A DNA stretch of 63,648 bases, counting the filler, from Folioceros fuciformis (Eukaryota): assembly GCA_049999805.1 (NCBI GenBank). It is 8 parts of 8 records of this genome, joined end to end, with 100 filler letters (N's around TTAATTAATTAA, not from the genome) between each part and the next. Parts side by side here need not be neighbours in the genome. Positions count along the whole stretch, not along the records: positions 44,528 to 51,402 come from JBNGIO010006443.1; 7 more parts are not named here. One strand, given 5' to 3'. Numbering within the stretch: the stretch's first letter is position 1; every line of letters starts with the position of its first letter. A program made the translations under genes and the position numbers. Shown in pieces: positions 1,711 to 63,648 of the stretch. Under the pieces are notes generated by a model. It ran no database searches and had not been told where the DNA came from. It worked only from the letters and a program-made list of their open reading frames with translations.

Positions 1711-1730
1711 TTTTGTAGAGTTCAGGCATC

Positions 1731-28937: not shown

Positions 28938-28988
28938 GCCTAGACAAGACTTTTGTGAGAGTCATCTTCCGACAGCGGTCTCTAAAAG

Positions 28989-30963: not shown

Positions 30964-32060
30964 NNNNNNNNNNNNNNNNNNNNNNNNNNNNNNNNNNNNN
31001 NNNNNNNTTAATTAATTAANNNNNNNNNNNNNNNNNNNNNNNNNNNNNNNNNNNNNNNNNNNNGCCAGCAATCGCACACCTCCACAAACCACGACGCCCT
31101 CTATCACACTGTCTACCTAGACTCTCACAACAAGTGCCATCGCCCATAGCTACTTGGCCGGTTGCCAGAGTACCTGAGCTCCAACGCATCACAAAACTCA
31201 CTCGAATCCACCCACAACCTCCATCGGCCCTGCGCGCATCGGTCCCAAGTGCCGGATAGCAACGTGCAGAGAGACTCGTTCTCATTCAGTGTGTTCCGTT
31301 TTGTAGGCAACCTACAACACGATCCAGAAGCTTCCGACCTCTCTTCCTCCGACCTTCCCAGCACTCTCGCCCGCTCCCCAGGCCCTGCCACGCATCTTGG
31401 CATCTTTTCATCACCTTCCTGGACCCATCCGCCGGTACGGCGCCTGTGCATCTGACAGCACATCGAAAACGCCCACGATAGAAAACAATTTTCTGACTTT
31501 CTCCACCCGTGCTCGACAAGTGAGAGGGGTGCGGAGAGGGAGAGCTACACCATCCCACCACCTTCCTCCATCACAACTTACCATCACCTCACCAGCTTCA
31601 GGCTATTAACGCCTGCACAACTCTGTTCCAACTCGAGATCGTCGGTCAATTCACAGTCAGGCACTCACCTTAGCACAGTGCGTGTGAATGACATGGCTAC
31701 CAAATGATGACGTCTGCGCCTGCACCACACGCCCTGAGACCCCAGCAACTTCATCCCTCGCCCATAATGTGGTGACCAGTAAGTGCTATTTCACATGGTG
31801 GCCTCCATCCACTGCACCACGACTTCGGAATTACCTTCTCCTCTCGCATACGACAAGTGTACACAAACAGGAATCTCACAATCATATACAATGCATTGCA
31901 GGTTCCATGAATCTACATACAAGATTGTGTAGAAAACAAATGGTTATGACAGCTATTGTTGGCACCACCTTCCTTGCACCACAAAGAATGCATAATATTA
32001 TACGTGAGTCAAGATCTGGGCCTTGGGAAAAGACCACGCCTCTTTCACCGTCCGCGTCCG

Positions 32061-33165
32061 CTTATCCTATTCAACGAGTGGAACCGAGCTGACTGACACC
32101 CTACGTTGGCCACTGAGTGCAAGACCTCCAGACACAGGACGACAGCCTGGAGGAGCCGTGAACGGAGGACGCCTTGAAACTCGTGACAACATGGTGGCCT
32201 GAACCACCGTGACAAATTATGTCAATGCCTACCTATGCATCTCACCTCAGCAGCCTTGCCAACCTTCCTGCCCTGCGTCAAGCGCAGTGCAGACAGAAAC
32301 ATGAAGAAGCAACATGGTTCATCAGACAGCCTTCTGTATGCAAGCCCAAGGGGGTTTCTCATTCACGACTCAATGCAACAACGAACTCATGTGGATGTGT
32401 TAAGGATTCTAGTAGACTCTGCAAGCATCATCGGCAAGCATCGTTACAGAGACAGGGCACCCTGCAGCTTCGAATTNNNNNNNNNNNNNNNNNNNNNNNN
32501 NNNNNNNNNNNNNNNNNNNNNNNNNNNNNNNNNNNNNNNNNNNNNNNNNNNNNNNNNNNNNNNNNNNNNNNNNNNNTGTGTGCATGCGAATGCACAGACA
32601 CGAAGAGGGAGTTCTGGGTCAGCTGTGGAAATCAGGGTGAGCCACAGACGGACATCAGGTGCTTCTACACGTGTCCGGAATCCATCCCACACCTCCAGTG
32701 TAATCTGTCCCACACTCTTTCCAAACCAACGGGAACCACAAAAGCTCTGCCTACGACTTGAACCTGAACCGCCTTGCCACATCGGAGACTGAAGGTTTCG
32801 CCTCCTGCAACAGGCTGTGCTTGCCCGACATGTTCTCTTGGAACACTCGCATCCTGCTGTGGAACAAAAGTATAGGTGCACATACTCACCTTGTTTTGCA
32901 TTGCATTAGCCCTGCAAGCAAATCTCTCCTCACCAGTGTCTGCGTTCGTGGCTCAGGAATGCAGTCACCACAGGCTGTCACTCAAAGCAAGAATGCATTT
33001 GTCGCTTGTGCGTTTAGAGAGCAGGAAATTACCCAGTCCATCAGAATCTCTCACTAGCGCCCACACACGGACCTCAAGATTTGTGCCCTGCCCTGCATCT
33101 CTTCGCTCTCGTCCTGCCACAAGAACAGTAGCTGCTGTACAGTGTACGAGGAAGCAGCACACCAT
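32061..33165 (+). repeat. ~1.1-kb duplicated segment, copy 1
   Basis: Colinear and moderately diverged relative to 37342-38371. Confidence 0.9.
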
Positions 33166-37341: not shown

Positions 37342-38371
37342 CTCATCCTATTCAACGAGTGGGAGCTAGCTGACTGACACCCTAGGTTTGGCACTGATTG
37401 CAAGAGCTGTAGACACAGGACCACAGCATGGAGGAGCCGTGGACGGAGCACGCCTTGAAACTCGTGGCAACATGGTGGCCTGAACCATGGTAACAACTTA
37501 TGTCAATCCATACATATGCATCTCATCTCAGCAGTCTTGCCAACCTTACTGCCCTGCGTGAAGCGCAGTGCATACAGAACCATGGAGAGTCAACGTGGTT
37601 CATCAAAGAGCCTTGTGTATGCAAGCCCAAGGGGGTTTCTCATTCACGACTCATGTCACGACTCGGTGAAACAACGGAATCATGTGGATGCGTTGAGGAT
37701 TCTACACTACAAGCATGATCGGCAAGCATCGTTACAGAGACAGGGCACCCTGCAGCTTCGAATTCTGAAGAATGCACCACCGTCTGCATCGTGCCTCGAT
37801 TGTGACCCATGCACACACACGAACAGGGAGTTCCAGGTCAGCTGTGGAAATCAAGGTGAGTTACAGAGCCACAGCAGGTGCTTCTAGACATGTTGGGATT
37901 CCATCCCACACCTCCAGTGTAATCTGTCCCACACTCTTACCAAACCAACCGGAACCACGAATCCTCCCCACGACTTGAACCTGAACCGCCTTGCCACATC
38001 GGAGACTGAAGGTTTCGCCCCCTGCAACAGGCTGTGCTTGCCAGACACGTTTTCTTGGAACACTCGCATCCTGCTGTAGAAGAAACGTATAGGTGCAGAG
38101 ACTCACCTTGATTTGCATTGCTTTGTCCGTGCAACCTCAACAGTGTCTGCGTTCGTGGCTCAGGAATGCATTCACCACAGGACGCCACTCAAAGCAGGAA
38201 TGCACTTGTCGCTTGTGATCGTAGTAGAGAGCAGGAAACTACCCACTTCATCGGAATCTCTCACTTGCGTCCAACACACGAACCTCAAGATTTGTGCTCT
38301 GCATCTCTTTGCTCTCGTCCTGCCAGAAGAACAGTAACTGCTGCACAGTGTACGAGGAAGCAACACACAAT
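37342..38371 (+). repeat. ~1.1-kb duplicated segment, copy 2 (immediately 3' of the DYW pseudogene)
   Basis: Colinear with 32061-33165. Confidence 0.9.
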
Positions 38372-42406: not shown

Positions 42407-42744
42407 TTCAGCCAGATTCGTAGCGCATTCATCGTCATCGCTTCCTTTAGACTCATCAGGGGGAAGCGNNNNNNNNNNGTCTGGGTCAAGCGCATTCATC
42501 GTCATCGCTTCCTTTAGACTCATCAGGGGGAAGCGCGGTTGGTCTGGGTCAAGCGCGGTTGGTCTGGGTCAAGCGCGTTGAATGAGAATGCCCTTCTGGG
42601 TTCCTTCAAGTCGGCCATTCTACTCTACCTTGATTAGACACATATCTTGCCTGCCGCGAGGAGAAAAGTCAGATTGCTTGCATATGCGAATGAGGAACAG
42701 TCCGTTTGTCAGTCTCAGCTGTGACAGCATTATTGAAAAAGGTG

Positions 42745-43050: not shown

Positions 43051-44527
43051 GGGAGGTCAGAAGGCAGCAGCTTGTTGCGAGCAGATGTTACTTAGTGGTA
43101 CTGTATTCAGCCTTAACAATTGTCTTGGACTGTGACACAATAAGATGAAAGCCCTTCAGCCAACAATGAGTAGCATGTATTAAGACTTGTTCTTGTGCCC
43201 AGATCATGAGCCTCAGGCCTCCCAAACACAAGAACAGGGTACAGACTATGCCCTCCCTGCCTTGACCCACTGTGTCTACAGCTATTGCCCATTTGATCCG
43301 TTGCAGGTCCAGACCGGCACAGCATTTCCAATTAGTCTTGGAGGTGCCTCAATTCTCCATACTAGTGGGTAGTCTCAACTTCTCTGATCAAGAACCTCTG
43401 ATGATATTTTGTGTTGAAGTTGCAACAAGCTGAAGTTCCTCAAGCATGCCCTGCCATCATCAAGGACCCTCAAGCTGAAGTTCCTCTAGCATGCCCTGCC
43501 ATCATCAAGCACCAAGTTGAGTCAATACCAGGATGCTTTGTGTTCTCCAAGTCCTGTTCTTAGAGCTTAGGGTCTCAAGTTGCAAGATATGTATTCGTGA
43601 CTCATGGAGCGCAAGTGTGACTATAAGTGTGTCTAATTCATACAGCAATCATTGCCTTGAAAGGCTATCTTTAATTATTGCCTTGAGAAGCTATCTTTTC
43701 AGTAGAGGCCTAAATCACTAGCAGCCCATGATCAGGAGCAGCATTTCACAGTTCTTTTGTAACTAGAAAAGCACTCCTCTACAGTATGCCAACAAGAAAA
43801 GTAGAAGGATTGAGCATCTCGGGGAATGCTTTCCTTCAACCATTGCGGGACACATCCAAGGAAGCCCTCATTCCTCAGTGCTTGGCGAGCAAGCTGAATA
43901 ACTATCGATAAGGTGAAGAAGGGAGCCAGGGCTTTGCTATTTTGAGAATTGCTTGCTTCAAAGATAAAAGTGCTCACTCCTCGGAAACTGGCACCTGCGA
44001 CTATTCCTACGGCCATAAACATAGTCTCAGGTCCAGTGTTTCTGTTCATCGGAATGTTGTCCTTGCAAAATGGCCATCGCCCACTTCATTGAAGTCTCCT
44101 CCTGGCCGCAAGATCAACCGGAGCCATGGGAAGGTCTTGGTGACCTCATCACATGCATTGGTCAGGCTGGCAACCATCTTAGTGTCTTTGGGACCTCAAG
44201 TTACGGTACTTTGCTTCCGAAAGTGTTGGCTCGAATGGTTGGTGAATCATCTCATTTGCATTTGCTTTTATCATCGATTCTCTACGATCACGAAGTCAGG
44301 GAAATGCTGTTTGTTGCTGTCCTTGAAACTTGCGTTCAATCACAAAATGGAGCCTGCAATTCTGTTCGTTCAATGCAGAAAAACAACTCACACCCTCGAG
44401 CTTCCGTCCTGTAGCAGGCTGTAAGTTNNNNNNNNNNNNNNNNNNNNNNNNNNNNNNNNNNNNNNNNNNNNTTAATTAATTAANNNNNNNNNNNNNNNNN
44501 NNNNNNNNNNNNNNNNNNNNNNNNNNN

Positions 44528-44850
44528 AAGTCCACATGTCCTGTACTCGGGGTTTCACATAGTACGTTGATAATTGAATGCCCGTTAGAAATCCCCTTGG
44601 TAATTGTCCTGTGCGGGCCGCAATTGCAAGAGCAGCCTCCAATTGTTGACATGAAAGAACAGTGTTATCAAGAGCATCATCTAGAAGTCTTTGGTCATCC
44701 ATGCTCACATATCTTAAAGATAGCCCACAATCGGTGATGGCAACATCATTACTCCCCTCAAAGTAATTCAGTAAATAAAATAAGTCTCGAACTACACTTT
44801 AGTGTAGCAAGGGCTACGTCGTAGACGACCATTTGCCCCACATTGGCCAT
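44528..44850 (-). pseudogene. Harbinger transposase N-terminus, second copy (cut by gap)
   Basis: Near-identical to 49287-49609. Confidence 0.85.
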
Positions 44851-45624
44851 AGATTGTCAATCCCTGAGCTTCGACCTAAACCGTAGCTGCTTGCTTCGAC
44901 CTAAAACGTAGCTGCTTGTTGAGCATGAAACTTGCTAAGCTTTGTCAAAGTCCATAGGGACACTTGAGTTCGATCGCGAACAGGCCAAGGCCAGCCCGTT
45001 GTACTGAACCGGTGATGACCCGTTTCAGGCACTTGGCCACTCTCGGTCATGAGTTCCGGTATGGGATAGTTCACACGTAACTGGGAAAAAAATCCCTGGA
45101 AAAAACGCTTAGGGTGGTTCGGGCTACATGGGAACCTAGCATTACTTGGTACATTGGACCCGCCCGGGTCCTGACTCCTGATCCTGTGTGAGAATCCACG
45201 ATTTCGTTTTCATTGCCCCACATTGCTTCGCGACACTAATTTTAGCATTCACGTGCAATGTACCTTGCAGTTATTTAAAATTGAATTTAACCAAAATTTT
45301 ATTTATTGAGGTAGGCATTTCCTTGTCCTCTACTAACAGCCAAAAATCACATATAGTCCTCTTTCTAAACACAAAAAAAAAGTGCTTTCTTCACCAAAGG
45401 GCCAAAGGGCCAAAGGCTGGCCAAAGAGATGCATATGGAAAATACAAATGTGAGAAAGGAAGATATTATAACTCGTTGCCTCTACAAACACTGCTTCCCA
45501 AAGTAGTGAGAGACATTCTAAGAAATTTGGATAATGTGTTTTTTATACTTGACACATTTACACTTCTATAAAATGAGCAACTCTAAAGTGCATACCTTGT
45601 CGAAACACTTTGCTTAATTTGCTT

Positions 45625-47181
45625 TTATTTTGCAGTAATTATTTTGACCTTTTTGTATACCATGGTTAACACACAATTTGCTACACCAGTCTCTCCTATA
45701 GTTTTTGAGGATAGTGCATCCAAGGTATAATTGGTTGCAACACCGGGTCTACTTGGTGCAGTGAACCAAAACTCCTCATTGGAGTTGTGGAACAACCAAG
45801 TCTCTTGCAGTTGCTTCAAACAAAACAACCACAAATAAGAGGAAGGATCGGACAACAGAAAACGACGTTGAACTACTTGACCGTCCAATAATGGAAATGC
45901 AACTCGACAAGTTGCTCTTGATGGAGTGCACGATTCCTTTGGCTCCTCTGGAAGGTTGGTTGTTTCAAACCAAGGATAGCTAGCATTGTAATGTGTATCC
46001 TTGATGATAAGTCTAGACGGAAGATCCCATTGTACCACTTGGTCGCCCTCTTCAAATATGGTCCCCAATGGTAGTGCTTCCTCCACGATATCTCTTGTGT
46101 TGGGTCTTTTGTAAGTGAATGGCAACCATTGCTCTACCAATGCATCCGAGCTTATGTCACTTGCATCACATTGTTTCAATTTCTGCCCGGTAAGTGGGTC
46201 AATCACAAGTATGCAAAAAGTGCTCTCGCCTATGTTGTAAAAGGTCTTCACTTTTAAGATCTCTGTGCTGTTGATTGGGACTTTCCATTCAAGGAAAGAC
46301 TGTACAATGAGATCCTTCGAAATCTTGTTGTTGCAATTTTCCCACTTTCCAAAATGTGGGAATGCCATGATCTCGTCCCCATGGATGTAGGCTAGGAGCC
46401 ACTTGCTCATTGATAATGCCTTCAGCTTTGCATCATGCAAATTTCCCCAATAAGATTGCATGGACATAGATTTGAAACCATGGTTGACAGTGGTTGTTTC
46501 TTCATAGCTTTGGAACCATGGTTGTCCATTTGTAGCTTGCTCATCTGATGAAGGTTCTGATTCTTCATCAATTGTGAGTGGCCATGGTAGTTCACTTGCA
46601 CCAGTCCATGGTTGCCCATTTGTAGGTTGTTCATCTGATGAAGATTCTGATTCTTCATCAATTATGAGCGGCCATGGGAGTTCACTTGCACCAGCCCATG
46701 GTTGCCCATTTGTAGGTTGTTCATCTGATGAAGATTCTGAATCTTCATCAATTATGAGCGGCCATGGTAGTTCACTTGCACCTGCCCAGGGTTGTCCATC
46801 ACTCCATGCTAGTTCACTTGCACCTGCCCAAGGTTGTCCATCACTCCGTGGCTGTTCACTTGCACTAGTCCATGGTTGTTCCCTTGCACAGGCTGTGCAT
46901 GGCTGTTTACTTGCTTCAATCCATGGTTGATCATCTCTAATTTGTGCATAAAGTTCCATAGACCATGGTTGTCTACATGCTATTATAGCTTCTTCATGAC
47001 TTGCACTCCATTGTCGTTCGCTAACTTCAATCCTATGTGGTTTGCCACGAATGGTTTGTTCACAGATTGTGTTGCATGGTTGTTGATGACTAGCATCTGT
47101 GCAAGTCTTATCCCACATCGCTTCATTAGCTTGGTTAAGAATTTCGCTCACCAATTTGTCTTCCCCAAGGTTACGCTCCAT
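45625..47181 (-). CDS. Intronless PUX7/UBXN7-like protein (UAS + UBX) with an N-terminal acidic repeat region, 518 aa
   Basis: UAS: AKLKALSMSKWLL...KVKTFY...ILVIDPLTGQKL...LPF. UBX: LPEEPK...CRVAFPLLDGQVVQRRFLLSDP...LWLFC...GVANC. Repeats: 3 x 90 bp plus 42-bp units at 46516-46870. Confidence 0.88.
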   Translation of the reverse strand: MERNLGEDKLVSEILNQANEAMWDKTCTDASHQQPCNTICEQTIRGKPHRIEVSERQWSASHEEAIIACRQPWSMELYAQIRDDQPWIEASKQPCTACAREQPWTSASEQPRSDGQPWAGASELAWSDGQPWAGASELPWPLIIDEDSESSSDEQPTNGQPWAGASELPWPLIIDEESESSSDEQPTNGQPWTGASELPWPLTIDEESEPSSDEQATNGQPWFQSYEETTTVNHGFKSMSMQSYWGNLHDAKLKALSMSKWLLAYIHGDEIMAFPHFGKWENCNNKISKDLIVQSFLEWKVPINSTEILKVKTFYNIGESTFCILVIDPLTGQKLKQCDASDISSDALVEQWLPFTYKRPNTRDIVEEALPLGTIFEEGDQVVQWDLPSRLIIKDTHYNASYPWFETTNLPEEPKESCTPSRATCRVAFPLLDGQVVQRRFLLSDPSSYLWLFCLKQLQETWLFHNSNEEFWFTAPSRPGVATNYTLDALSSKTIGETGVANCVLTMVYKKVKIITAK

Positions 47182-47731
47182 TTTGGATCAAGGAAGCTCG
47201 ATTTCAGACACTTAGTAGGGAAGCTAAGCAATATCCTCTCAAAAGGTGTTGCCCTTTGCCTTTCTTGAAGCGTAACAACACAAGTAGCTAGGTTCACAAT
47301 CTATATGCACTATGTAATCTCAAGAAGACATCAAGATGATAAACTTAATTGTGAGCTTGCAAAATAACCTAGAACGTCTACTTGTATTGATAAAATAATA
47401 TCATGTACAACACACATATATAGTATATGTAGCTCATTTACATATGATGGTATGTCATTTTGACATGATATCGAGCTTTAATAAAGTATGCCTATAAAGT
47501 TTGTGGACAAAAAGGTATTACATATCTTCAGTTTCCCACGGGGATGGGATATGCAATGGATGGCAGTGGGACAAAGTATCCACACGGTTTGAAAGAACTT
47601 CATATGCAAAGCACATTCACAGTGTGTACATTACTGTGGAGCGATGCTGTACAAAAGGCATTTCGCTAAACTACGCGCTCTCTGTTCGGACAATATGTGA
47701 TTCCGAACGCGCTTGCTTCTATCGAGTTATC

Positions 47732-47880
47732 GGCCGCGTCGCAGCCGTAGTCGCCGGGGTATTCTCCCTTCAGATAGCTCGGGGGCTCGCCGGAGAACGG
47801 GCCCATGTATTTGGGCCTGTCTGGGCCGTACCTACAAGCAAGATCCGTGTTCCTTGATTTACATCGCGTTGCATGTCTCA
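47732..47880 (-). pseudogene. LHCB: Captured LHCB/LHCII fragment (intron 3' end + ~100-bp exon piece)
   Basis: Acceptor ...GCTTGTAG|G at 47832 is followed by [33 protein letters not shown], matching LHCII WYGPDRxKYLGPFS..PSYLTGEFPGDYGWDTA. Confidence 0.9.
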
Positions 47881-48224
47881 TGGCTGGCTAGCTCGAAGCA
47901 TTCAAGAACGAACAGGTCTGGACGATTGCATCCCATGGTCTAGGTGAGAGGGTAACAAACGCAGCTCATTGAGGAGGAGCAAAGCACTTGGACGCGAGTA
48001 ATGGAGCAAAGGAAACTTGAGGTGTATGAGTGAACCGAGGAGAAAAGATTGCAAGCTAACTCTGAATTTGGGCGTGGAGTGGTCTAGGCAATGATCGGCA
48101 TATCTCTTGGGACCCGAAGTCTTAGTTTAGCTATCATAGAGGCAGCCCATATCAAGAAAGGGCGGGTAGAACTTACACAACATTCATTTCTCAACAACAA
48201 AGGGTTGAACATATGGTTTCTAGT

Positions 48225-49609
48225 TCATGAGTTCATCTCATTGCTCCATAACATGTGCATCAAGATGTCTCTCAACCCACTGTGACCTTCGGCACTACCG
48301 GGCCCAGTTGCCATGAAGTTTTGATGCATGCCATCTTCTTCGTCGTCCTCCTCGCCTGCCAATATTCTTGGATCTATCTCATCACCACGATCTATCCGAA
48401 TGTTGTGCAGTAGCACACATGCATAAGTCAACGCATTGAAGTAGTCGATGTTGCCTCGCCACACCCTCCTACCTAGTATCCGCCAAACCTTTTTCAGTGC
48501 TCCGAAAGCGTCCTCAACGACCATACGAGAAGAGGATAGCTTGAAGTCAAAAGACTCTTTGTCTGCCATCAAACCTTGACCAGGAAAGGGGATGATCAAC
48601 CATGGAAGCAAAGGGTAGCCAACATCTCCGATGATATACTCTCGCACTTCCTCGTTATCCACGAGCATGGATGGTCCATTCAGCCGTGCACCTGCATTGG
48701 CTTGGTGATATACCTCTGAGTTGTATAGAATTCTCGTATCATTTGCAGCTCCTGGCCAGCCTGTTACTACGTCTAAGAACTTCTTATTGGGGCCTACGAT
48801 ACCTTGCATTGCGACTGTGAGATCCTTGTATCTTCCTCGATACTCCCATTGGTTTTCTCCTACAGGCAGTTCCAACCGAAAATGGGTCACATCGATGGCA
48901 CCACAACAATCCATGAAGCCATGTCGTTCAAAGAATCCTGCCTTCACTTCCTCCAATTTGACCTGTTGATGGCCAGGCAAGGTGATGCCTAGCCTTCTAT
49001 ATGATTGCTTTGACAAAACGGTGAGTAATTGTGCAGGCAATTGACTGTCCCACTCCGAAGCTGTCACCTAAAGAGACAAAGCTATCACCTGTGGCCAGTC
49101 TCCTTAAGGCAATGGCAACTTGTTTATGCACAGAGATAATCCCCCCGGGGATGTTCACAAATCCAGGAACTGGAGTCGGGTCAAGAGCGTCATGAACTAG
49201 ATTGCAGATGTACGTAGAGGTTGCCCATGGGAATCCATAGAAACGGGCAAACCTTTTTGGATCCTCTTGTGCCACTTGAAGGTATAAAGTCCACATGTCC
49301 TGTACTCGGGGTTTCACATAGTACGTTGATAATTGAATGCCCGTTAGAAATCCCCTTGGTAATTGTCCTGTGCGGGCCGCAATTGCAAGAGCAGCCTCCA
49401 ATTGTTGACATGAAAGAACAGTGTTATCAAGAGCATCATCTAGAAGTCTTTGGTCATCCATGCTCACATATCTTAAAGATAGCCCGCAATCGGTGATGGC
49501 AACATCATTACTCCCCTCAAAGTAATTCAGTAAATAAAATAAGTCTCGAACTACACTTTAGTGTAGCAAGGGCTACGTCGTAGACGACCATTTGCCCCAC
49601 ATTGGCCAT
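48225..49609 (-). pseudogene. PIF/Harbinger DDE transposase (HARBI1/ALP1 family), disrupted
   Basis: Motifs KQVAIALRRLATG, RHHLAWPS, CCGAIDVTH, GWPGAAND, IIGDVGYPLLPWL, RMVVEDAFGALK, ACVLLHN. In-frame TAG at 48997-48999, frameshift near 48955 and a probable one near 49555. Confidence 0.93.
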
Positions 49610-50374
49610 AGATTGTCAATCCCTGAGCTTCGACCTAAACCGTAGCTGCTTGCTTCGACCTAAAACGTAGCTGCTTGTTGAGCATGAAACTTGCTAAGCT
49701 TTGTCAAAGTCCATAGGGACACTTGAGTTCGATCGCGAACAGGCCAAGGCCAGCCCGTTGTACTGAACCGGTGATGACCCGTTTCAGGCACTTGGCCACT
49801 CTCGGTCATGAGTTCCGGTATGGGATAGTTCACACGTAACTGGGAAAAAAATCCCCGGAAAAAACGCTTAGGGTGGTTCGGGCTACATGGGAACCTAGCA
49901 TTACTTGGTACATTGGACCCGCCCGGGTCCTGACTCCTGATCCTGTGTGAGAATCCACGATTTCGTTTTCATTGCCCCACATTGCTTCGCGACACTAATT
50001 TTAGCATTCACGTGCAATGTACCTTGCAGTTATTTAAAATTGAATTTAACCAAAATTTTATTTATTGAGGTAGGCATTTCCTTGTCCTCTACTAACCACC
50101 AAAAATCACAGATAGTCCTCTTTCTAAACACAAAAAAAAGTGCTTTCTTCACTAAAGGGCCAAAGGCTGGCCAAAGAGATGCATATGGAAAATACAAATG
50201 TGAGAAAGGAAGATATTATAACTCGTTGCCTCTACAAACACTGCTTCCCAAAGTAGTGAGAGACATTCTAAGAAATTTGGATAATGTGTTTTTTATACTT
50301 GACACATTTACACTTCTATAAAATGAGCAACTCTAAAGTGCATACCTTGTCGAAACACTTTGCTTAATTTGCTT

Positions 50375-51402
50375 TTATTTTGCAGTAATTATTTTGACCT
50401 TTTTGTATACCATGGTTAACACACAATTTGCTACACCAGTCTCTCCTATAGTTTTTGAGGATAGTGCATCCAAGGTATAATTGGTTGCAACACCGGGTCT
50501 ACTTGGTGCAGTGAACCAAAACTCCTCATTGGAGTTGTGGAACAACCAAGTCTCTTGCAGTTGCTTCAAACAAAACAACCACAAATAAGAGGAAGGATCG
50601 GACAACAGAAAACGACGTTGAACTACTTGACCGTCCAATAATCGAAATGCAACTCGACAAGTTGCTCTTGATGGAGTGCACGATTCCTTTGGCTCCTCTG
50701 GAAGGTTGGTTGTTTCAAACCAAGGATAGCTAGCATTGTAATGTGTATCCTTGATGATAAGTCTAGACGGAAGATCCCATTGTACCACTTGGTCGCCCTC
50801 TTCAAATATGGTCCCCAATGGCAGTGCTTCCTCCATGATATCTCTTGTGTTGGGTCTTTTGTAAGTGAATGGCAACCATTGCTCTACCAATGCATCCGAG
50901 CTTATGTCACTTGCATCACATTGTTTCAATTTCTGCCCGGTAAGTGGGTCAATCACAAGTATGCAAAAAGTGCTCTCGCCTATGTTGTAAAAGGTCTTCA
51001 CTTTTAAGATCTCTGTGCTGTTGATTGGGACTTTCCATTCAAGGAAAGACTGTACAATGAGATCCTTCGAAATCTTGTTGTTGCAATTTTCCCACTTTCC
51101 AAAATGTGGGAATGCCATGATCTCGTCCCCATGGATGTAGGCTAGGAGCCACTTGCTCATTGATAATGCCTTCAGCTTTGCATCATGCAAATTTCCCCAA
51201 TAAGATTGCATGGACATAGATTTGAAACCATGGTTGACAGTGGTTGTTTCTTCATAGCTTTGGAACCATGGTTGTCCATTTGTAGCTTGCTCATCTGATG
51301 AAGGTTCTGATTCTTCATCAATTGTGAGTGGCCATGGTAGTTCACTTGCACCAGTCCATGGTTGCCCATTTGTAGGTTGTTCATCTGATGAAGATTCTGA
51401 TT
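50375..51402 (-). CDS. PUX7-like UAS-UBX gene, second copy (5' end lost in gap)
   Basis: Near-identical to 45625-46652; reads CRVAFRLLDG, keeping the UBX Arg. Confidence 0.86.
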
Positions 51403-51502
51403 NNNNNNNNNNNNNNNNNNNNNNNNNNNNNNNNNNNNNNNNNNNNTTAATTAATTAANNNNNNNNNNNNNNNNNNNNNNNNNNNNNNNNNNNNNNNNNN
51501 NN

Positions 51503-53577: not shown

Positions 53578-53831
53578 AAGTGAACAAAATAGAATGCCGA
53601 AGAGAGACCAATAGTAAACACCCCGTCAGCTCTAGCCTGCTTGCATAATTCTGGCTTCCAGCCCCGAATATCGAAACACTGTGGAACCAAAGCTCTTCAA
53701 AAATCTCCATGCCAATCATAAATTTCGAATCNNNNNNNNNNNNNNNNNNNNNNNNNNNNNNNNNNNNNNNNNNNNTTAATTAATTAANNNNNNNNNNNNN
53801 NNNNNNNNNNNNNNNNNNNNNNNNNNNNNNN

Positions 53832-53864: not shown

Positions 53865-54771
53865 GAAAAATGAAGAAGTGAGTGTAGCCAGTGCCAGGTG
53901 GATTCCTAGTGGTGTGCGGATTGGTCGTGGTGGCAAGTACGGATGTTCCCCTAACAAGAAGACGAAGAAGAAGAAGAATTGTATGATGGTGCACTTGAGG
54001 GCATTTCGCTCTGTGGGACTAGGTACTTCACACCTTTGTAGCAAGCCTAGCATGTTTTCCCTGCACCCCTGCACACTGTTCATGATGAGCACGTTGTACA
54101 CGTGCTTTGCAGGGTCTCGTCAACTCGTTCTCCTCACCAATACTGCCATATGTATATTATGCTGTACAGTGCAGGTGAAAGCAGATTGGTAGCCAGTATG
54201 CCGAGGAGTATGAAGGCAAAAGGATCTTGGCAGTTCACAGGAAGCAAGTGAAAGTAGCAATCCCAATCACAATCCAGGCAGTGCGAGGCACATATCTAGA
54301 CTTTTACTTAACGGCAATTCCTCGTCTAGTCACATCCTGGGCCGCGTTGCCGTTTCGGCCTTCAAGATGCCAACTGACCTAACTGCGTGATGAGAAACAG
54401 AGACCGTTATACCATGGCTCGCTTAAAAGATCTTGGGGTATGTAGGTTGGCATGCACTTAACGTTGACAAGCCTTAAATGAAATTCTTGTTTCTCTTATG
54501 GCGGCTGACAAGCAATTAACTGTTTTGTATATCTCAAGTGAAACATAAAGTTACTACGTAATATCCGTCACATGGTCGAGTGGTCTGAAGCACCAAACCG
54601 ACAGCTCGCCCACAGGTATTATAGAACGGCTCACCCCTTCAGGCAGGACGGCTTACGGTTCACCCCTTCAAGCAGCTGTGGTCTTACATACGTATGTACA
54701 GGGTATTCGGCCGGAGATCCGCCTAGACGAGAGTTTTGTTAGAGTCATCTTCCGACACCGGTCCGTGAACG

Positions 54772-57700
54772 ATGGCCACAGTATGGCAACCGGACCTGTT
54801 GTGGACCCAACAAATTGGAATTGGTGTGTGTACAAGGACTCTACCAGGAAGCCCCGCTCACCTCAGTTTCGGGAGTGAACCCTTTGCAAACAAAGCCTCC
54901 AGGTGCAGCAGTGTGAGGAGCCCAGCACTTCCACCTCCGAGAACGAGAATGTGTGTGGGCAGGGACGGGTTTTCCGACGATGCTGGTAGTTGCCAGGAGC
55001 AGCAGGAGCACTTGTGGCAACAACTTTTTCTGGACCCTACCATGTGGTTGGATAACAGACGAGACAAGAAGAGCTCCCGTTCCCCTGACTTCCGGCGTAA
55101 GGGGTCCGGCGAGGTGCTGTGGTTGGACAACATGTTTAAGCCAGCATGGGTTGATGACAGGCTCATCTCGTTGGATATGCAGATGGATCACGGTTCCGCC
55201 CCTTCCATCTCCAGCTCTCCAGATAATCCTGATCCTGGAAGGCGTACAGGTGGTGAAATGGGCTCCAGACGCAGCAGTGCTAGAAATCCAGCACTTCCAC
55301 ATCCAATGCGCCATAGAGTCTCTTCTTTCGAGTGCAGCTCTCCGTATAAGAGTGGATCTGGCAGGCGTGCAGAATTGGAAACGGGCGTCGTAACGGCTGC
55401 AACTGTGAGCATGTTATGTCATCAGGGGAAGCTTTCTGAGGCGGTTGGAGCCCTGGAATCTCTGGTGCAGTCAGACTCTGGCGTTTCTCAGTCTCTGTTT
55501 TACACAGTGTTAAAACTCTGTACAGCTAAGAAGGATTTGGTGGTGGGGCGACGAGTTCATGATCTCACAGTCAAACTTGGGTACGAGTCGAATGCATATT
55601 TGGGGAACCATATCTTGCGCATGTATGCATGTGGAGGTAGGCTAAAGGAGGCGATGGATGTGTTCAACAGGGTAGGGAAACCGAATGTCTTCATGTGGTT
55701 TTCCATAATTTCTGGACATGCTAAGCACGGGAAGCCGAAGGAGGCCATACAACTGTACCATGAAATGCGTAGGTCAGAAGTGAAGGCGAATGGTTATGTG
55801 TTTGTAGCCGCCCTTCAAGCTTGTGCATATGCTGCCGACATAGAATCTGGCAGAACAATGCACCGCGACGTGTTGTGCAGTGGCTTCCGTACTGACTTGT
55901 TTGTTAACAGCTGCTTGGTGGATATGTATGCAAAATGTGGCCGAATGAAAGATGCACGCCAGGTTTTTGATAGCATGAACACGAAGGATGTGGTGACATG
56001 GACGGTCCTGATCGCTGGGTATGCACAGCAGGGACTGGGCCAAGAGGCACTTGTTGTTTATGGACAAATGGAGGAGGCAGGCGTGGTTGTGGCTGACTAT
56101 GTTACTTTTGCTTGCCTTCTGAAGGCGTGTGGAAGCACTGGAGCCTTGCAGAAGGGCAGGGAGCTCCACTCGCAGATTGTCAACAGAGGTCTGCTGGATG
56201 ATGTACTCGTAGGCACCTGCCTGGTGGACATGTATGCAAAATGTGGTGAGGTGGAATGTGCACGACAGGTTTTTGACAACATGAACACAAAGAATGTGGT
56301 TACATGGACGGCCCTGATTGCTGGGTATGCACAGCAAGGACTCGCCCAAGAGGCCCTTGGTCTGTACGGGCAGGTGGAGGAGGCAGGCCTCGTTTTGGCC
56401 GATGATGTTACTTTTGCATGCATTCTGAAGGCGTGTGCAAGCAGTGGTGCATTGCAGAAGGGCAGGGAGGTGCACTCACAGATTGTCAACAGAGGTCTGC
56501 TGGATGATGTACTGGTAGGCACCTCCCTGGTGGACATGTATGCAAAATGTGGTGAGCTGGAAGATGCACGCCAGGTTTTTGACAGCATGAACAGTAAGAA
56601 TGTGGTTACATGGACCGCCCTGATTGCTGGGTATGCACAGCAAGGACTCGGCCAAGAGGCGCTTGTTGTGTATGGACAGATGGAGGAAACAGGACTCGTT
56701 TTGGCTGATGATGTTACTTTTGCTTGCATTCTGAAGGCGTGTGGAAGCACTGGTGCCTTGCAGAAGGGCAGGGAGCTGCACTCACAGATTGTCGAGAAAG
56801 AACTGCTGGATAATGTAGTGGTGGGCACCTGCCTGGTGGACATGTATGCCAAATGTGGTGAGGTGGAAGATGCACGCCAGGTTTTTGACAGCATGGCCAC
56901 TAAAGATGTCGTCACATGGAATGCCCTGATTTCAGGGTATGGTGCTTGTGATGAAGGTTGCAAGGCGCTAGCTTGTTTTGAGGAGATGTTAGCTGCCGGT
57001 GTTCATCCTAACCATGGTACTTTTACTTGCCTTCTAGTAGCATGCAGTCATGGGGGTCTGGTCGAGGAGGGTCGCAAGCTCTTTGATTCCATGGCTGAAG
57101 AGCATGGTGTCATACCTACTGCTGAGCATCACAACTGCATGATTGATCTTCTTGGGCGTGCTGGCGAACTAGATGAGGCAGAGAGGATGCTATTATCATG
57201 TGAGGGCGAAAGTGATGTGGTGTGTTTGACATCTTTGTTGAATGCCTGCAAAAGTCACGGAGATCTAGAGAGGGCTGTGTGGTGTTTTGAAAGCATTGTT
57301 AGGCTGGACCCCCAGGAGGCACCTGCCTATGTTCTCATGGCCAATGCCTATGCAGATGCAGGTAGGTGGACCGATGTAGACAGGATTGAAACACAGAGAA
57401 AGGCAGCAGGAGCTAAGAAGAAGCCAGCAGTGGCAAGCATTGAGGTAAATAAGGAGGTACACAGATTTCAGGTGGGAGAAAGGAGAAAGGATATTGCGCT
57501 TAAGGTAGAGAGCACGAATGCGCGTGTGAAGCAGGAAGGAGGCCACGTACCTCACACAAAGTTGGTGTTGAAGCCAGTGAGTGAGAAGGAAAAGGAAGAC
57601 GTGCTTTGTGGGCATGCTGAGAAGCTAGCTCTGGCGTTTGGTCTGTTGAACACTCCGAATGGGACACCTCTGATGGTAACCAAGAATCTACGCATGTGCA

Positions 57701-57822
57701 GTGATTGCCACAGCTCGACGGCGATCATGTCGAGGCTTGAGCAGAGAGACATTGTTGTGAGGGATGGGTACCGTGTGCATCGATTCGCAAATGGTTGTTG
57801 CAGTTGTAAGGGTCGACCATGA
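54772..57822 (+). CDS. Full-length intronless PLS-PPR-E-DYW:KP (GRP-type) organellar RNA editing factor, copy D, 1016 aa
   Basis: About 200-aa Ser/Pro/Arg-rich leader, ~17 PPR motifs with 306-bp triplet repeats, E1/E2, KKKPAVASIEV, HAEKLA, CSDC, terminal GRP. Confidence 0.96.
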   Translation: MATVWQPDLLWTQQIGIGVCTRTLPGSPAHLSFGSEPFANKASRCSSVRSPALPPPRTRMCVGRDGFSDDAGSCQEQQEHLWQQLFLDPTMWLDNRRDKKSSRSPDFRRKGSGEVLWLDNMFKPAWVDDRLISLDMQMDHGSAPSISSSPDNPDPGRRTGGEMGSRRSSARNPALPHPMRHRVSSFECSSPYKSGSGRRAELETGVVTAATVSMLCHQGKLSEAVGALESLVQSDSGVSQSLFYTVLKLCTAKKDLVVGRRVHDLTVKLGYESNAYLGNHILRMYACGGRLKEAMDVFNRVGKPNVFMWFSIISGHAKHGKPKEAIQLYHEMRRSEVKANGYVFVAALQACAYAADIESGRTMHRDVLCSGFRTDLFVNSCLVDMYAKCGRMKDARQVFDSMNTKDVVTWTVLIAGYAQQGLGQEALVVYGQMEEAGVVVADYVTFACLLKACGSTGALQKGRELHSQIVNRGLLDDVLVGTCLVDMYAKCGEVECARQVFDNMNTKNVVTWTALIAGYAQQGLAQEALGLYGQVEEAGLVLADDVTFACILKACASSGALQKGREVHSQIVNRGLLDDVLVGTSLVDMYAKCGELEDARQVFDSMNSKNVVTWTALIAGYAQQGLGQEALVVYGQMEETGLVLADDVTFACILKACGSTGALQKGRELHSQIVEKELLDNVVVGTCLVDMYAKCGEVEDARQVFDSMATKDVVTWNALISGYGACDEGCKALACFEEMLAAGVHPNHGTFTCLLVACSHGGLVEEGRKLFDSMAEEHGVIPTAEHHNCMIDLLGRAGELDEAERMLLSCEGESDVVCLTSLLNACKSHGDLERAVWCFESIVRLDPQEAPAYVLMANAYADAGRWTDVDRIETQRKAAGAKKKPAVASIEVNKEVHRFQVGERRKDIALKVESTNARVKQEGGHVPHTKLVLKPVSEKEKEDVLCGHAEKLALAFGLLNTPNGTPLMVTKNLRMCSDCHSSTAIMSRLEQRDIVVRDGYRVHRFANGCCSCKGRP

Positions 57823-57936
57823 GAAAAATGAAGAAGNNNNNNNNNNNNNNNNNNNNNNNNNNNNNNNNNNNNNNNNNNNNTTAATTAATTAANNNNNNNN
57901 NNNNNNNNNNNNNNNNNNNNNNNNNNNNNNNNNNNN

Positions 57937-60900
57937 CATCTGTCATTTTGAATTCGCCGCTAAGTAGATCTTTGAGCTCATTGATCATCTCCAGACTGTT
58001 AGACATAAGAATTAAGTCATCTACATAAATGGCCAGTGCCAGAAACTCTTTGTTCTTCCCTCTCTTCACATACACATTAGAGTCAGCATGGATAGGTAAA
58101 TAACCATGTGCAATTAGAAAGTTGTGTATGCGTGAGTACCAAGCCCGTGGGCTTTGTTTGAGGCCATATATTGTTTTGCGAAGCTTACACACATTCTGAC
58201 CTTTGTCCTTTGCTGTGATCAGGCCAGCTGGTGGCAGCATATATATTTCTTCATTCAGATTACCATATAAGAAAGCAGTTTTGACATCGAGCTGTTCAAG
58301 CTCATAATCATGGATAGCTGCCAAAGCTAGGAAGATGCGCAAAGTACTCATCTTAACAATTGGACTGAAAGTATCTGAATAATCAACTCCAGGGACTTGT
58401 GAGTACCCTTTGGCAACAACTCTTCCTTTATATCTGTCCACTGAGCCGTCGGATTTCAGCTTAATCTTAAATACCCATTTGGAGCCGACAGCCTTCCTAC
58501 CAACTGGAAGCTGAGTCAGGGACCATGTATCGTTCTCCTTCAATGAAGCTAACTCTGATGCTATTGCAGCCTTCCAATGAAGTGCATCAGAGCAGGTGAT
58601 CGCATCCTCATACGTCAAAGGTTCATAGTGCTCTACTGTAGTAGATAGGCAGTAGGCTAAGTTAGACTTAGGATGATCCTTAGAATGTGGATACGGATAC
58701 CTGAAGTCAACTGGTGTATAGAGGTCGATTTTCCCCGCCGTGGTCCTGACTGGCCTTTCCCTCGGTGGTACGGAAGCTGCCTTCTTTCGCTTGACAATGC
58801 CAGGAGATGAAATATGCTGCTGGCTGGAAGAAGGGGAATCAAATAGAGGGCCAGGTGAGACGACACCTTCCATGTCAAAATCTCCGAACACAATAGGTTC
58901 ACTAGCACCACTTGCAGCAGGTCTGATAGGGACTGTAGGGGCTGGTGTGGAAGGAGTTTGCTAAAAGATGGGAGGATGAAGTGGTGCTGTTGGGTGTGTG
59001 ACAGGTTGAGCTGCTGAAGGTAGTGTAAAGCCAACAACAGGCTGCTCATCAGCCTCCTCATCTGAGTCTGTGGCGAGGTCCGAAGATGAAGCTCCCACTG
59101 AATTAGTAGACTCAATGCCCTCAACGAAGATCACATCACGAGAGTGAGTTACCTTCTTGGTCCTTCTATCAATGACCTTGTAGCCCTTAATTCCTTCAGT
59201 GAAACCAAGAAAGATGCATGATGAGGACTTCTTATCAAATTTCTTACGAAGGTCTTTGTGAATGTGCACATAAACAGGAGAACCAAATACACGAAGATGA
59301 GAAATATTTGGTTTCTTGCCTGTCCATAACTCATAGGGAGTTTTACCCTCAACTGCAGCATGAGATATGCGGTTTTGGATATAAGTGGCATATGCCACAG
59401 CTTCAGCCCAATAGCATTTCGGAAGATCAGCATAGGTAAGCATACTTGTTACCGATGTTTCTAGAGCCTTGTTCTTGTTCTCTGGAACACCGTTCTGCTG
59501 AGGAGTGCGTGCATTAGTAAACTGTCTGCCAACGCCATAGTCCGTGCAGAATGCTTGAAAAGCTCCCGATGCATACTCGCCTCCATTATCGGAGCGAAGT
59601 ATCTTCAGCCTGTGATCAGTTTGATTTTCTGACCACAGCTTAAACTCCTTGAAACAGGCCAGAGTTTGGGACTTCAGCTTGATAAGGTACACCACACAAA
59701 AACGTGAGAAGTCATCAATGAAAGATAGAAAATAATGCATGCCCCCGAGTGATGCTGGGAAGGGTCCACCGACATCACTATGCACCAAAGCCAGTAGCTT
59801 GGTGGCCCTCTCAGCTGGCTCAGTTGGGAAAGGAGAGCGCTGATGTTTTCCAAGGACACAAGCATGGCATACTCCAAAATCAGATAAGTTGTCTAACTTC
59901 AGTCCTTTGACCAAGTTATCTCGATGCATTGTGACTAACTTCTGAAAATTGATGTGGCCTAATCGCAGATGCCACAAATAGGTCAAAGAGGGCTGAACCA
60001 TAGACTTGGTGCTGGCAGCTGCATAAGCATGAGATTGCTTTACATCCAAATGATAAAGATCATCAGATCTGAGGCCGCCAGTTGCCATAAGAGTGCCTTG
60101 AGCAGTTTCTACAACACACTTACTTCCACCAAAACAGATGAAGCACCCGGACTGATCAATTTTTCGAACTGATAGAAGGTTCTTGGTCAAGCCCGGTACA
60201 TAGAGGACATCAGGAATTTCAAGATGCTGATCTGGCTCAAGGTGTAATTTGATAGTACCTTGGCCTTGAATTTGGTGAGTAGTGCTGTCTCCCAAGCACA
60301 CAAATCTCTCACCTTGAGTAGGCTCCATGCTGGAGAAGTAAGCTTCATGGGGAGTCATGTGCTGAGAAGCTCCCGAGTCTATGTACCATACATGCTCAGC
60401 TTGAGTAGCGAGGCAAGTGACCACAAGAGCTGTGGAACACACATCCTTCTCGGTAAGTGCATGCTCCTTTACACTTGCTGTAAAAGCTTTTGAATACTTA
60501 TTCATCGTTACAGCCAAGTGGCCTGATGAGTGGCCACCTCCAGATGCATTGGCCAACCGTTTTCTGCAGACCTCCCACGTGTGGTTGTTGAGGCCACAGT
60601 AGCCACATGGTGGCTTTCCTCTTCCAGCAGAAAAATTCGGTGGTTTGAACGAGGCACCGCGGCCTCTACCTCGACCACGTACAAAGGGGCGTCCCCTTCC
60701 TCTCCCTCGGCCTGATTTGTTTATAAACAATGCTTTGTCTCCTGCAGTAGATAGGGATGACATCTTCCTTCGTGTCTCCTCTGTCAACATAGCAGATATA
60801 ACCCGATTGACTGTGATCGTGGGAATACCTTGCAGGGATTGGACGACATTGGTCCAGCTTTCAGGCAATTGAGAGAGTAAAATAACCGCCATTATATCAT

Positions 60901-61056
60901 CATCCAGTTCAAAACCAAGTGCAAGAAATTTTGTTTGCCAACTCCTGTAGGTAAGGACATGCTCAGCCACATTATCAGTTTCGGACATTCGTAACCCTAT
61001 AAACATTTTGAGTGTATGTGTTTTCAGCATTAAGTCTACTGCATCATACACTTCCA
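57937..61056 (-). mobile_element. Copia gag-pol internal region (both ends in gaps), disrupted near 58961
   Basis: Motifs CGYCGLNNHTWEVC, WYIDSGASQHM, LWHLRLGH, HSDVGGP, SDNGGEY, QLDVKTAFL, IYVDD. Confidence 0.93.
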
Positions 61057-61155
61057 NNNNNNNNNNNNNNNNNNNNNNNNNNNNNNNNNNNNNNNNNNNN
61101 TTAATTAATTAANNNNNNNNNNNNNNNNNNNNNNNNNNNNNNNNNNNNNNNNNNN

Positions 61156-63648
61156 NGTACTGCTGGAAGTGCTACCTCCAGCACTACCGGATGTGTACCC
61201 GGGAGATGGTCCTGCTGTTTCTCCCCCATAGGGAGCTTTGCTCCACGAGACAAACGAAACTTCAGCAGGTCCTGTAGGTTTAGACCTAAAGGTCACACCT
61301 TTCCTGCCAAAATCAAACACACAAGCTGTCCCGTACAACCACGGTCTCCCAAGGAGCACCTTGTACCCTAGGTCAGACACTGGCCTCATGACAATGTAGG
61401 TTAGCTTGAACATGATCCCTCCTATCACCGTGGGCACATCCTTCAACACTCCTAGAGGCTTCCTCTTGGTCTGATCTGCCATCCGAAGGTACACGCGGAT
61501 AGGGTCAAACTCCGTGAACCCCAAACGATGGGCTGTGTCCTCCGTCATGAGGTTGACACCAGACCCCGTATCCAACGGTACATCCGGTACCAGACAACCT
61601 GCAATCTCCACCTCTATTTCAGGAGCTCCACAATCAGCCAACTCCACTGAACTCATCCACGTCGGGACTGTCTTCCCTTCGAGTGGCTCCGGTATCCCTC
61701 GGATGGCTTCCTTGACGATCTTCCTGGCCTTGGGACTAACAGACAAGAGCTGTCTCAAGCTCACCACAAACTCCTGGTCAAGCAAGGCGTCAGCAAATCC
61801 AGCAACCTTCATGGCCAAAGCCTCCCTTGCTGTTGTTGTCTTAGGAGGATTGATCCCTCCATCCTCCTCGCTTCGATCAACCTTCTCTCCTTCGTGTTCC
61901 TTCTCCAAGGGACTTGCACTCTCCACCACCCCTGTCACAAGAGGGTCTGCAAACGTGACCTTCTTAGACCGGTGCATCAGCCTAGTAAGCTCTTCCTCCA
62001 GCATTGCAGCAACCTCCTTGCTGATGTCGGGTGGGAATGCTGATTCTTCAACCTCTCCTTCATCTAGTTCACCTTCCTCTCGATGGGGTGGATCAACCTC
62101 TTGTCCCGTCGACACATCATTCTTCCCTTGCTGGACGAGTGGTTCCTCCCTTGCCTCCGATGGTTTAGGAGTGTTGTCACGTTCTCTCCTCCTTCTCTTC
62201 TCTTCCTTCTTCGTCTTCTCCCGATAACGACGTTCAGAACGAGTGGTGACCCTTGCCACCATGACGTCTTCACCATCGCTAGCTTCGCCTGAATATCCCT
62301 CCTCCACAATGCCAGAAAATGCGTGAGAGTCAATCAAAGGCTCCTCCTCAGCCTCCACCGACAACACAGGTGCGCTTGTCACTGGAGTTGTTGTCTCCAC
62401 CGCAGAAGGAAGTCCCTCTTGCGGTGCCTCCGTGATCCTCACTCCAGATCTAGGCAGCGCAGGCCTAGGGATGCCCGAACACCTTGGATCCCCAGCCCTG
62501 TGCCCTGGATCCTTACACACCTGACAAAACGGCACAAATCCAAGTTGCCTACGTGGCTCTGTGCACTCGTTAGCATAGTGTCCCGGCAAGCCACAATTAA
62601 AACAACACCCTGCTGCCACCACTTGTGGACGTTGGGACGGATCTGGCCTCCAATGGCCTGGAGATACTGGACGAGGACCATACCTCATTCCAGGAGGTCC
62701 TGGTGGTTGGAAAGATGGCCGAATGGACTGTGGTGGTCGAGGAGCAGTCACAGCCTGTACCTGATAGGAGTCATCCACGTACCAATAGTCTCCTGGTAGG
62801 TAGGTGTCCACTTGGTTGACGGCGTGGCGGGGAGCCCTAGTGCACTCTTGGTGGGTGTGTCCTGATTGGTGACAAATAGAACAGTACACCAGCTGCCGAC
62901 CCGGTGAAGGTGACCTCCTTGGTGCTTGGTTGCGTACAGCCTTCACCTCCAGCTCGGCCAGCCTCCTCGTCAATGCCTCAACCTGACTGGTCAGTCCTCC
63001 ACCACTTGAGGATGGTTCGCCTCTCTCCATCCTATAGGATCCTTTACCTCTCTTGTCCTTCTCAGCTCGACGATCCTCATCCTCTTCGCGCCTCTTGCGT
63101 GCTTTCTCCAGGTCCTTCCTCATCCTCTTCTCATAAGCCTTATCGGACTCCTCATCGGTGTAAGAATCCGTCACAAGGCTGTCATAATCGGGATCAGAGT
63201 GAGACGGTGACCTCGACCTTGAAGAGGAAGATGGGCTGTGATGTCTTGACCTCCTATGATGCCCATACTTCCGGTTCTGCTTCCTCTTCTCTCTGCTCAA
63301 CTCCGAAAGCTCAAAATCTTCAGCAGCCTTCAAAGCCTCCTGCAAAGTGGTCACACCTCTTGTGCAGTAGGTTGCCATCCTATCAGGTAGTCCTCCAGCA
63401 AACCAATCCAAAGCTTGAGCATCCGTGTACCCTGGAGTACTCGGACCTCCCGGAACAACTGGCCTACCACGTGGAATCCTGTCCACATAGCTGTAGAACC
63501 TCTCAATGTAGTCATAGAGATCCTCCTTCCTTCCTCGCTTCAAAGTCCTCAACCTCGCGTAGGTGTGATGGCCATGGCTGAGACCTCGGAACCTGGTCAA
63601 GAAATCGTCCTTCAGGCTGTCCCAATCCACTGGTGGTGTCACTCCATA
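61156..63648 (-). mobile_element. Ty3/Gypsy gag-protease ORF
   Basis: Retrotrans-gag WDSLKDDFLTRF; three CCHC knuckles; aspartic protease LDTGSGVNLM...VLLGRPWL; open for more than 820 codons. Confidence 0.9.

Follow-up and report, generated by a model that had tools for sequence, protein, structure and literature searches.

The window analysed here is a stretch of 63,648 nucleotides of Folioceros fuciformis DNA (GenBank assembly GCA_049999805.1), in which eight contigs are joined end to end. One of these contigs (JBNGIO010006443.1; 44528-51402, 6875 bp) carries on its minus strand a single unbroken open reading frame (ORF) of 518 amino acids plus stop (45625..47181), whose predicted product, P0001, consists of an N-terminal region with tandem repeats followed by a UAS and a UBX domain. 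The ATG (47179-47181) has an A at position -3 and a G at +4, and a TGA lies two codons upstream of it. At the base composition of this DNA, 518 codons free of stops would arise by chance with a probability of about 7e-15. The UAS-UBX gene is apparently intronless, being made up of this single-exon ORF. A second, truncated copy of the ORF, a broken transposase gene and a fragment of a light-harvesting complex (LHC) gene lie on the same contig and are described further below.

Taken together, profile alignment, a match in the PDB, AlphaFold, Foldseek and the Atlas identify in the C-terminal half of P0001 the paired UAS and UBX domains of a PUX7/UBXD7-type protein. The UAS (thioredoxin-like) domain spans residues 241-360 (46102..46461, minus strand) and the UBX domain residues 420-511 (45649..45924, minus strand). 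In a phmmer comparison with the PDB, P0001 matched human UBXD7 best, over that protein's UAS domain (2dlx_A, E 6.4e-6, residues 243-345). A word-seeded search of 5.8 billion proteins returned one relative, P0002, which is 28% identical and carries UBA-like, Thioredoxin_7 and UBX domains, and a HMMER scan of 1.84 billion representatives returned 97 proteins at E<=1e-3 (best 3.1e-17) with identities of 26-40%, all of whose best-matching stretches fall within residues 181-510. In the alignment of P0001 with 41 relatives (A2, 42 members), Pfam recognises Thioredoxin_7 in 39 members, UBX likewise in 39, UBA_4 in 29 and UIM in 4. Aligned by hhalign with a profile of 34 homologues from which P0001 had been left out, residues 243-510 scored a probability of 99.8% (E 5.5e-30). 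AlphaFold, supplied with the relatives' alignment, folds both domains confidently, with a predicted local distance difference test score (pLDDT) of ~90 over residues 241-360 and of 87-96 over residues 420-511. Foldseek places the modelled UAS domain with that of UBXD7 (2dlx, 1.2e-4) and the UBX domain with 2cr5 (9.7e-5), 9v9o (the PUX5 UBX domain with CDC48A-N), 8hrz, 3qq8 and 5x3p, a set that includes the UBX domains of p47, FAF1 and UBXD7. The Atlas neighbours of P0001 are Thioredoxin_7 + UBX clusters.

Ahead of the UAS domain lie residues 1-235 (46477..47181, minus strand), a region predicted to be disordered (pLDDT below 50 over most of residues 24-236) that contains 14 Trp and carries a net charge of -32. 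The HMMER scan of 1.84 billion representatives found no relatives of the repeat region, none of the 3873 candidates from a word-seeded search with residues 1-235 reached E<=0.01, and an Atlas search with the same residues gave no usable match. Tandem Repeats Finder reports an array at 46516-46799 (period 90, 3.2 copies, 93% matches, 0% indels, score 484), overlapped by a second at 46762-46879 (period 42, 2.8 copies, 88% matches). Together with the translation, these define three 90-bp (30-aa) units on the minus strand at 46528..46797 (residues 129-158, 159-188 and 189-218), which read GQPWAGASELPWPLIIDEDSESSSDEQPTN (unit 1), GQPWAGASELPWPLIIDEESESSSDEQPTN (unit 2) and GQPWTGASELPWPLTIDEESEPSSDEQATN (unit 3), with the consensus GQPW(A/T)GASELPWPL(I/T)IDE(D/E)SE(S/P)SSDEQ(P/A)TN. 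Three 90-bp units at 93% identity cannot have a chance origin. They are preceded by two 42-bp (14-aa) units, EQPWTSASEQPRSD and GQPWAGASELAWSD (46798..46881, minus strand; residues 101-128), which are a shorter ancestral version of the 30-aa unit, and, as seen in the translation, by degenerate, older QPW units (46882..46977, minus strand; residues 69-100). A preliminary description of this DNA had proposed three tandem 90-bp repeats preceded by shorter QPW-containing units, all in frame, and both claims are borne out within the one ORF, the 90-bp units being free of indels and the shorter units filling residues 69-128. All repeat periods are divisible by three, and the reading frame runs through without a break.

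The tripeptide QPW occurs eight times (residues 71, 85, 102, 116, 130, 160, 190 and 220) and is common to all units, old and young, whereas the LII-acidic segment is restricted to the three youngest. The array grew by stepwise amplification around QPW, from degenerate units through 14-aa units to the three 30-aa units, which gained the segment PLIIDE(D/E)SESSSDEQPTN. At 46636-46660, and at the equivalent positions of each unit, the DNA for DE(D/E)SESSS forms an imperfect palindrome (TGATGAAGA...TCTTCATCA). Because of this palindrome, the opposite strand also stays open, and a plus-strand ORF (46508-46930) reads a similar Ser/Asp-rich peptide. Hairpins formed by the palindrome, and slippage, may have been favoured.

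The known architecture to which the C-terminal half belongs is UBA-UAS-UIM-UBX, that of PUX7 in Arabidopsis and of UBXD7 (UBXN7) in animals. P0001 has the same order and spacing of UAS and UBX, the conserved 'LPEEP' ahead of UBX and the Pro-Gly of the S3-S4 loop, in addition to the match to the UBXD7 UAS domain. It differs in having neither UBA nor UIM, in carrying the 235-residue repeat array ahead of UAS, and in being encoded by one exon within a mosaic unit that is repeated. That no UBA is recognisable at the N-terminus, as the preliminary description had stated, is upheld by several searches: Pfam finds no family in residues 1-235, and hhalign of these residues against the profile of 34 homologues gives E 0.37. 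A hidden UBA exon upstream was rejected, tblastn of 10 full-length homologues giving no UBA-like segment in the contig. A vestigial UBA was likewise rejected; MAFFT set KLVSEILNQA under the family's LVSSFLEI, a placement discounted because that profile included P0001 itself, and with P0001 removed from the profile nothing remained. As for UIM, the UAS-UBX linker alignment holds no E-E-x-x-L-x-x-A-L-A-x-S segment and Pfam detects none. It is through their UIM that PUX7, 8, 9 and 13 reportedly bind ATG8 (PMC8181520, PMC8666691). Both ubiquitin/ATG8-reading modules are therefore lost, and this is not a clean swap of one end. The earlier proposal that the ubiquitin-binding end of PUX7 had been replaced holds as far as the UAS + UBX of PUX7/UBXD7 type, the missing UBA and the disordered array are concerned, but the protein is not PUX7 itself and UIM has gone as well.

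Elsewhere in the window, on another contig, the minus-strand stretches 37347-37541 and 32141-32422 gave weak tblastn matches (E 0.05-5, not significant) to the 'RPP..LMF.G...LQS..SH.LNR' region of several PUX7-like homologues. They read ...FRPPCCHEFQG...LQSVPNLGCQSASSHSLNR and might possibly belong to a further PUX7-like gene, as an exon or a relic.

Taken together, these features lead us to favour, with confidence that we put at about even, the reading that the repeats form a minisatellite, young and strictly in frame, within a lineage-specific, very divergent UAS-UBX gene from which UBA and UIM were lost. Were the protein to be made, its UBX domain would be expected to dock on the N domain of CDC48, and the array would form a multivalent platform of acidic linear motifs, probably phosphorylatable by CK2. 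Among specific partners SUMO would be the best guess, on account of the three hydrophobic residues followed by a C-terminal Ser/acidic tract in a disordered region, although as a guess it is doubtful.

A SUMO-interacting motif (SIM) is described in PMC9371903 as a [V/I/L]-[V/I/L]-x-[V/I/L] core that lies in disordered regions and gains strength from neighbouring acidic residues or from CK2 phosphoserines, and the preliminary description had likened the 30-aa units to the phospho-SIMs of PML, Daxx and PIAS. The likeness extends to the hydrophobic run followed by a Ser/Asp/Glu tract, to CK2-type sites and to disorder: the tail DE(D/E)SESSSD consists of D, E or S at 7 or more of its 9 positions in all three units, and units 1 and 2 each contain two S-x-x-[DE] sites. 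It does not extend to the core. Known cores have four positions, as in VVVI of PML (PMC9371903), whereas the units have a three-position run after Pro, P-L-I-I-D in units 1 and 2 and P-L-T-I-D in unit 3. A regex scan for the strict core ([VIL][VIL]x[VIL] or [VIL]x[VIL][VIL]) accordingly matched none of the three units, and the strict cores of P0001 are found solely at residues 308, 324 and 512, in the folded domains or the tail. Under a looser pattern that allows Pro at the first position, the repeats would presumably fit. Three hydrophobic residues with an acidic tail have a comparable counterpart in only 1 of 98 homologues, which makes them an uncommon feature in this family.

An ATG8-interacting motif (AIM) had also been proposed, with WxxI as its core. 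Units 1 and 2 do contain the core W-x-x-[LIV], as WPLI, with acidic residues downstream, but unit 3 reads WPLT and has no core; the first x of the core is Pro. The AIM core by itself is known for false positives (PMC8666691), and the ATG8 contact reported for PUX7 (PMC8181520, PMC8666691) is made through the very UIM that P0001 is missing.

One explanation of the array is that it is a functional multivalent phospho-SIM/AIM platform which has replaced ubiquitin recognition, so that CDC48 is retargeted to poly-SUMOylated substrates or to ATG8. The threefold occurrence of a hydrophobic run with a Ser/acidic tail, at a spacing of 30 residues and in a disordered region, favours it, as do the rarity of the motif among the homologues, the loss of both UBA and UIM, the published description of SIM architecture with CK2 enhancement, and the mainly synonymous differences between units 1 and 2. 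Cdc48 cofactors with SIMs also exist. PMC13484578 describes, for yeast Ufd1, a SIM at the C-terminus through which SUMO-polyubiquitin substrates are favoured, and for FAF1 (UBA-UBL-UAS-UBX) two proposed SIMs. Like these, P0001 would be a Cdc48 adaptor with a short hydrophobic/acidic motif for SUMO, putative in its case, and FAF1 shares the UAS + UBX pair. The motifs of Ufd1 and FAF1, however, are single or dual and stand beside ubiquitin-binding modules, whereas P0001 has three tandem candidate motifs that lack the strict core, and no such module. The stimulation of p97 unfolding by FAF1 is, moreover, reported to be SUMO2-independent (PMC13484578). With the strict SIM consensus unmatched, the AIM core confined to two of three units, the UIM contact gone and a conserved Arg of the UBX domain changed to Pro in the complete copy (see below), this explanation appears unlikely. 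A literature search for a plant UBX protein with a SUMO-interacting motif found no paper.

Alternatively, the array could be functional with a partner that is neither SUMO nor ATG8, either as a Trp + acidic linear-motif platform or as an acidic phospho-tail that folds onto a basic UAS surface or tunes CDC48 engagement. It is QPW, not the LII-acidic segment, that forms the most conserved element of every unit, and the strongly acidic, Trp-rich composition with recurring QPW and LPWP fits such a role. PUX UAS domains have been modelled with positively charged patches (PMC8181520), and regions outside UBX are reported to slow the dissociation of CDC48A in PUX7 (PMC13078151). Any likeness to known Trp-based motifs is, however, presumptive, and the analyses point to no partner; we regard this alternative as quite unlikely.

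A further explanation questions the gene itself. The ORF could be a non-functional or decaying copy, captured or retroposed, of a PUX7-like gene, with the array a neutral minisatellite whose SIM-like look stems from GAT/GAA/TCA-rich palindromic DNA. Slippage could be promoted by such a palindrome, which leaves the other strand open as well. The missing intron and the missing close relatives agree with this, as does the heavy erosion of conserved positions, above all in UAS.

The second copy of the ORF (copy B; 50375..51402, minus strand) is cut by the end of the contig inside repeat unit 2. Over the 1027 coding bases that it shares with the complete copy (copy A), there are three substitutions, V>M, P>R and one synonymous change, and over the 1098 shared non-coding bases there are six substitutions and two indels. 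Both indels lie in the 3' flank of the ORF (45394-45416); one involves a single 8-bp unit of a CCAAAGGG microsatellite, the other a base within a run of T. Since the contig ends in unit 2, the units that copy B has in common with copy A are limited to unit 3 and a 35-bp part of unit 2. In the comparison of repeat number and frame between copies that the preliminary description had suggested, the 135 bp of array that the copies share are identical, and repeat number is not comparable, copy B being cut.

Units 1 and 2 differ at five positions, four of them synonymous and the fifth a conservative D/E exchange, and the same five differences would include 0, 0, 0, 3 and 0 synonymous changes in the five other frames. 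When all unit differences are polarised by hand, six are synonymous and five non-synonymous, against an expectation of ~22% synonymous (~2.4 of 11); the binomial tail for this excess is ~0.02 by hand arithmetic and is weaker if transitions are favoured. Because the bias to synonymous sites is found in this frame only, we infer that the ORF, array included, probably evolved as coding sequence. Drift to ~30% identity free of selection predicts many stops and frameshifts, and a sequence with such a history would not be expected to keep 518 codons open or to yield confident UAS and UBX folds, which again suggests that the ORF evolved as coding sequence. The UBX domain, too, retains 22 of its 27 conserved columns, Pro479-Gly480 of the S3-S4 loop among them, which speaks against a decaying copy.

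Several results nevertheless weigh against the favoured reading, beginning with the coding signal itself. The bias to synonymous sites is drawn from 5-11 substitutions. Of the five non-synonymous changes, four fall in unit 3, among them I>T within the hydrophobic stretch and S>P within the run of Ser residues, and the two non-synonymous changes to one synonymous change between copies A and B give no sign of constraint. Pfam matches no family in P0001, either at E<=0.1 with the whole protein or at E<=10 with residues 236-518, which makes P0001 one of 3 members of A2 (of 42) that fail the Pfam UBX model. Among the 71 columns conserved in at least 80% of the 41 homologues, P0001 retains 42, the homologues' own minimum being 74% and their median 90%, and in UAS it retains 17 of 38. 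No relative more than 40% identical was found among the 1.84 billion representatives, and conservation is therefore not demonstrable. Pro479-Gly480 aligns with the IPG of the family, but the loop that contains it, TAPSRPGVAT, is ~2 residues longer than in the relatives shown. Arg430 in the first UBX strand, conserved in at least 80% of the 41 homologues, is Pro in the complete copy (CCA at 45892-45894) and Arg in copy B (CGA, column 760 of alignment A1). The failure of the units to match a strict SIM core, described above, belongs to the same side of the balance, as does the setting of the ORF among gene debris.

The last two UBX features touch on CDC48 binding. The column of Arg430 presumably holds the N-domain-contacting Arg of PUX5 and p47. 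Mutation of that UBX Arg alone in PUX5 is reported to leave affinity unlowered, and the failure of PUX2 to bind has been linked to a long S3-S4 loop (PMC13078151 for the former; PMC8181520 and PMC13078151 for the latter). With 26-40% identity to its relatives, no Pfam match, 42 of 71 conserved columns, a longer loop and Pro430, P0001 is a very divergent singleton paralogue, and not PUX7 itself or a PUX7 orthologue.

The two copies of the ORF lie in a larger repeated stretch. The opening 2125 bp of the contig (44528..46652, no strand assigned) return as its closing 2116 bp (49287-51402) at 99.15% identity, which gives a period of 4759 bp and ~1.4 occurrences of a 4.76-kb unit on the 6.9-kb contig. 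This unit, whether a true tandem or a product of the assembly, is a mosaic that combines pieces of genes: the UAS-UBX gene, a Harbinger/ALP1-like gene that is broken and a fragment of an LHC gene. The Harbinger-like gene (48225..49557, minus strand) lies between the two UAS-UBX copies and encodes DDE_Tnp_4 (Pfam E 3.6e-25) and Plant_tran domains, as do PIF/Harbinger transposases and the domesticated ALP1/HARBI1-like proteins. It differs from these systems in being broken, tblastn with P0101 and P0104 showing a TAG in frame as well as a frameshift near 48990-49010, and in its company: the second ORF here is UAS-UBX, no Myb-like second ORF was seen, and an inverted-repeat scan of the contig (17 short pairs) found none that was terminal. 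The transposase has its best relative, an unnamed protein, at 51% identity. Named ALP1-like/HARBI1 proteins among the best matches listed reach ~35-41%, and a Ginkgo-style model (Gb_03722) reaches 50% over a stretch that covers 46% of the query. By eye, the D, D and E positions seem present.

The LHC chlorophyll a/b-binding protein fragment (47690..47845, minus strand; ~50 aa) lies on the same strand ~0.5 kb upstream of the UAS-UBX ATG, between the transposase remnant and the ORF. Pfam gave no match on this ORF, and its identity comes from phmmer against the PDB (E 2.3e-21 to 5e-15). So isolated a fragment suggests gene-fragment capture. Sharing a repeated unit with a broken transposase gene and an LHC fragment speaks for a decaying copy, and the Pro430 of copy A and the ratio of changes between copies point the same way. 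The transposase gene, however, has acquired a stop and a frameshift, while the UAS-UBX ORF next to it is intact. On this balance, and with the open frame, the confident folds and the synonymous bias set against it, a decaying copy seems somewhat unlikely, and to the gene being functional we give an even chance.

The rest of the window stands apart from this locus. Its eight contigs are joined by N44-TTAATTAATTAA-N44 linkers (18498-18597, 30964-31063, 44428-44527, 51403-51502, 53732-53831, 57837-57936 and 61057-61156) that carry stops in all six frames; as the window is joined in this way, apparent neighbours across linkers are not syntenic, and genes outside 44528-51402 are not neighbours of the UAS-UBX gene. 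Plain gaps are also present (32477-32576 and 42469-42478). Three plus-strand stretches (54769-57822, 22211-24064 and 28986-29708) encode pentatricopeptide repeat (PPR) proteins with an E motif and a DYW deaminase domain, which terminate in ...CSCKGRP instead of DYW. The near-identity of these pieces on three different contigs suggests a recently duplicated family or haplotigs. Ty1/copia-type retroelement ORFs, some with stops, lie at 1012-6264 (plus strand), 25789-28961 (minus strand) and 57881-63648 (minus strand), with RVT_2 at 4222-6264 and gag/integrase-like ORFs seen by eye; the region is rich in repeats.

What the locus means depends on whether the protein is made. If the ORF is a decaying copy, it is ordinary gene debris in a repeat-rich plant genome, and it counsels caution in reading short motifs in low-complexity repeats. 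The boldest reading would make P0001 a dedicated SUMO-to-CDC48 adaptor of a plant lineage, a UAS-UBX protein without UBA or UIM that carries, through the recent amplification of repeats in frame, three tandem, CK2-regulated SIM-like motifs and whose gene is possibly spreading in a transposon-associated repeat unit. We consider this very unlikely. If true, P0001 would be the first among UBX cofactors to read its substrates with a multivalent array of SIMs encoded by repeats. In pairing such a tandem array with the lack of any ubiquitin reader, a UBX cofactor of this kind would offer a new variation on a known idea. CDC48 has already been linked to sumoylated centromeres (as cited in PMC8181520), and a protein that is produced and recognises SUMO would be relevant to the clearance of SUMOylated chromatin proteins in plants. 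It would also indicate that CDC48 adaptors can switch from reading ubiquitin to reading SUMO through the loss of modules and the amplification of short motifs, and that minisatellite expansion within an ORF can quickly create multivalency.

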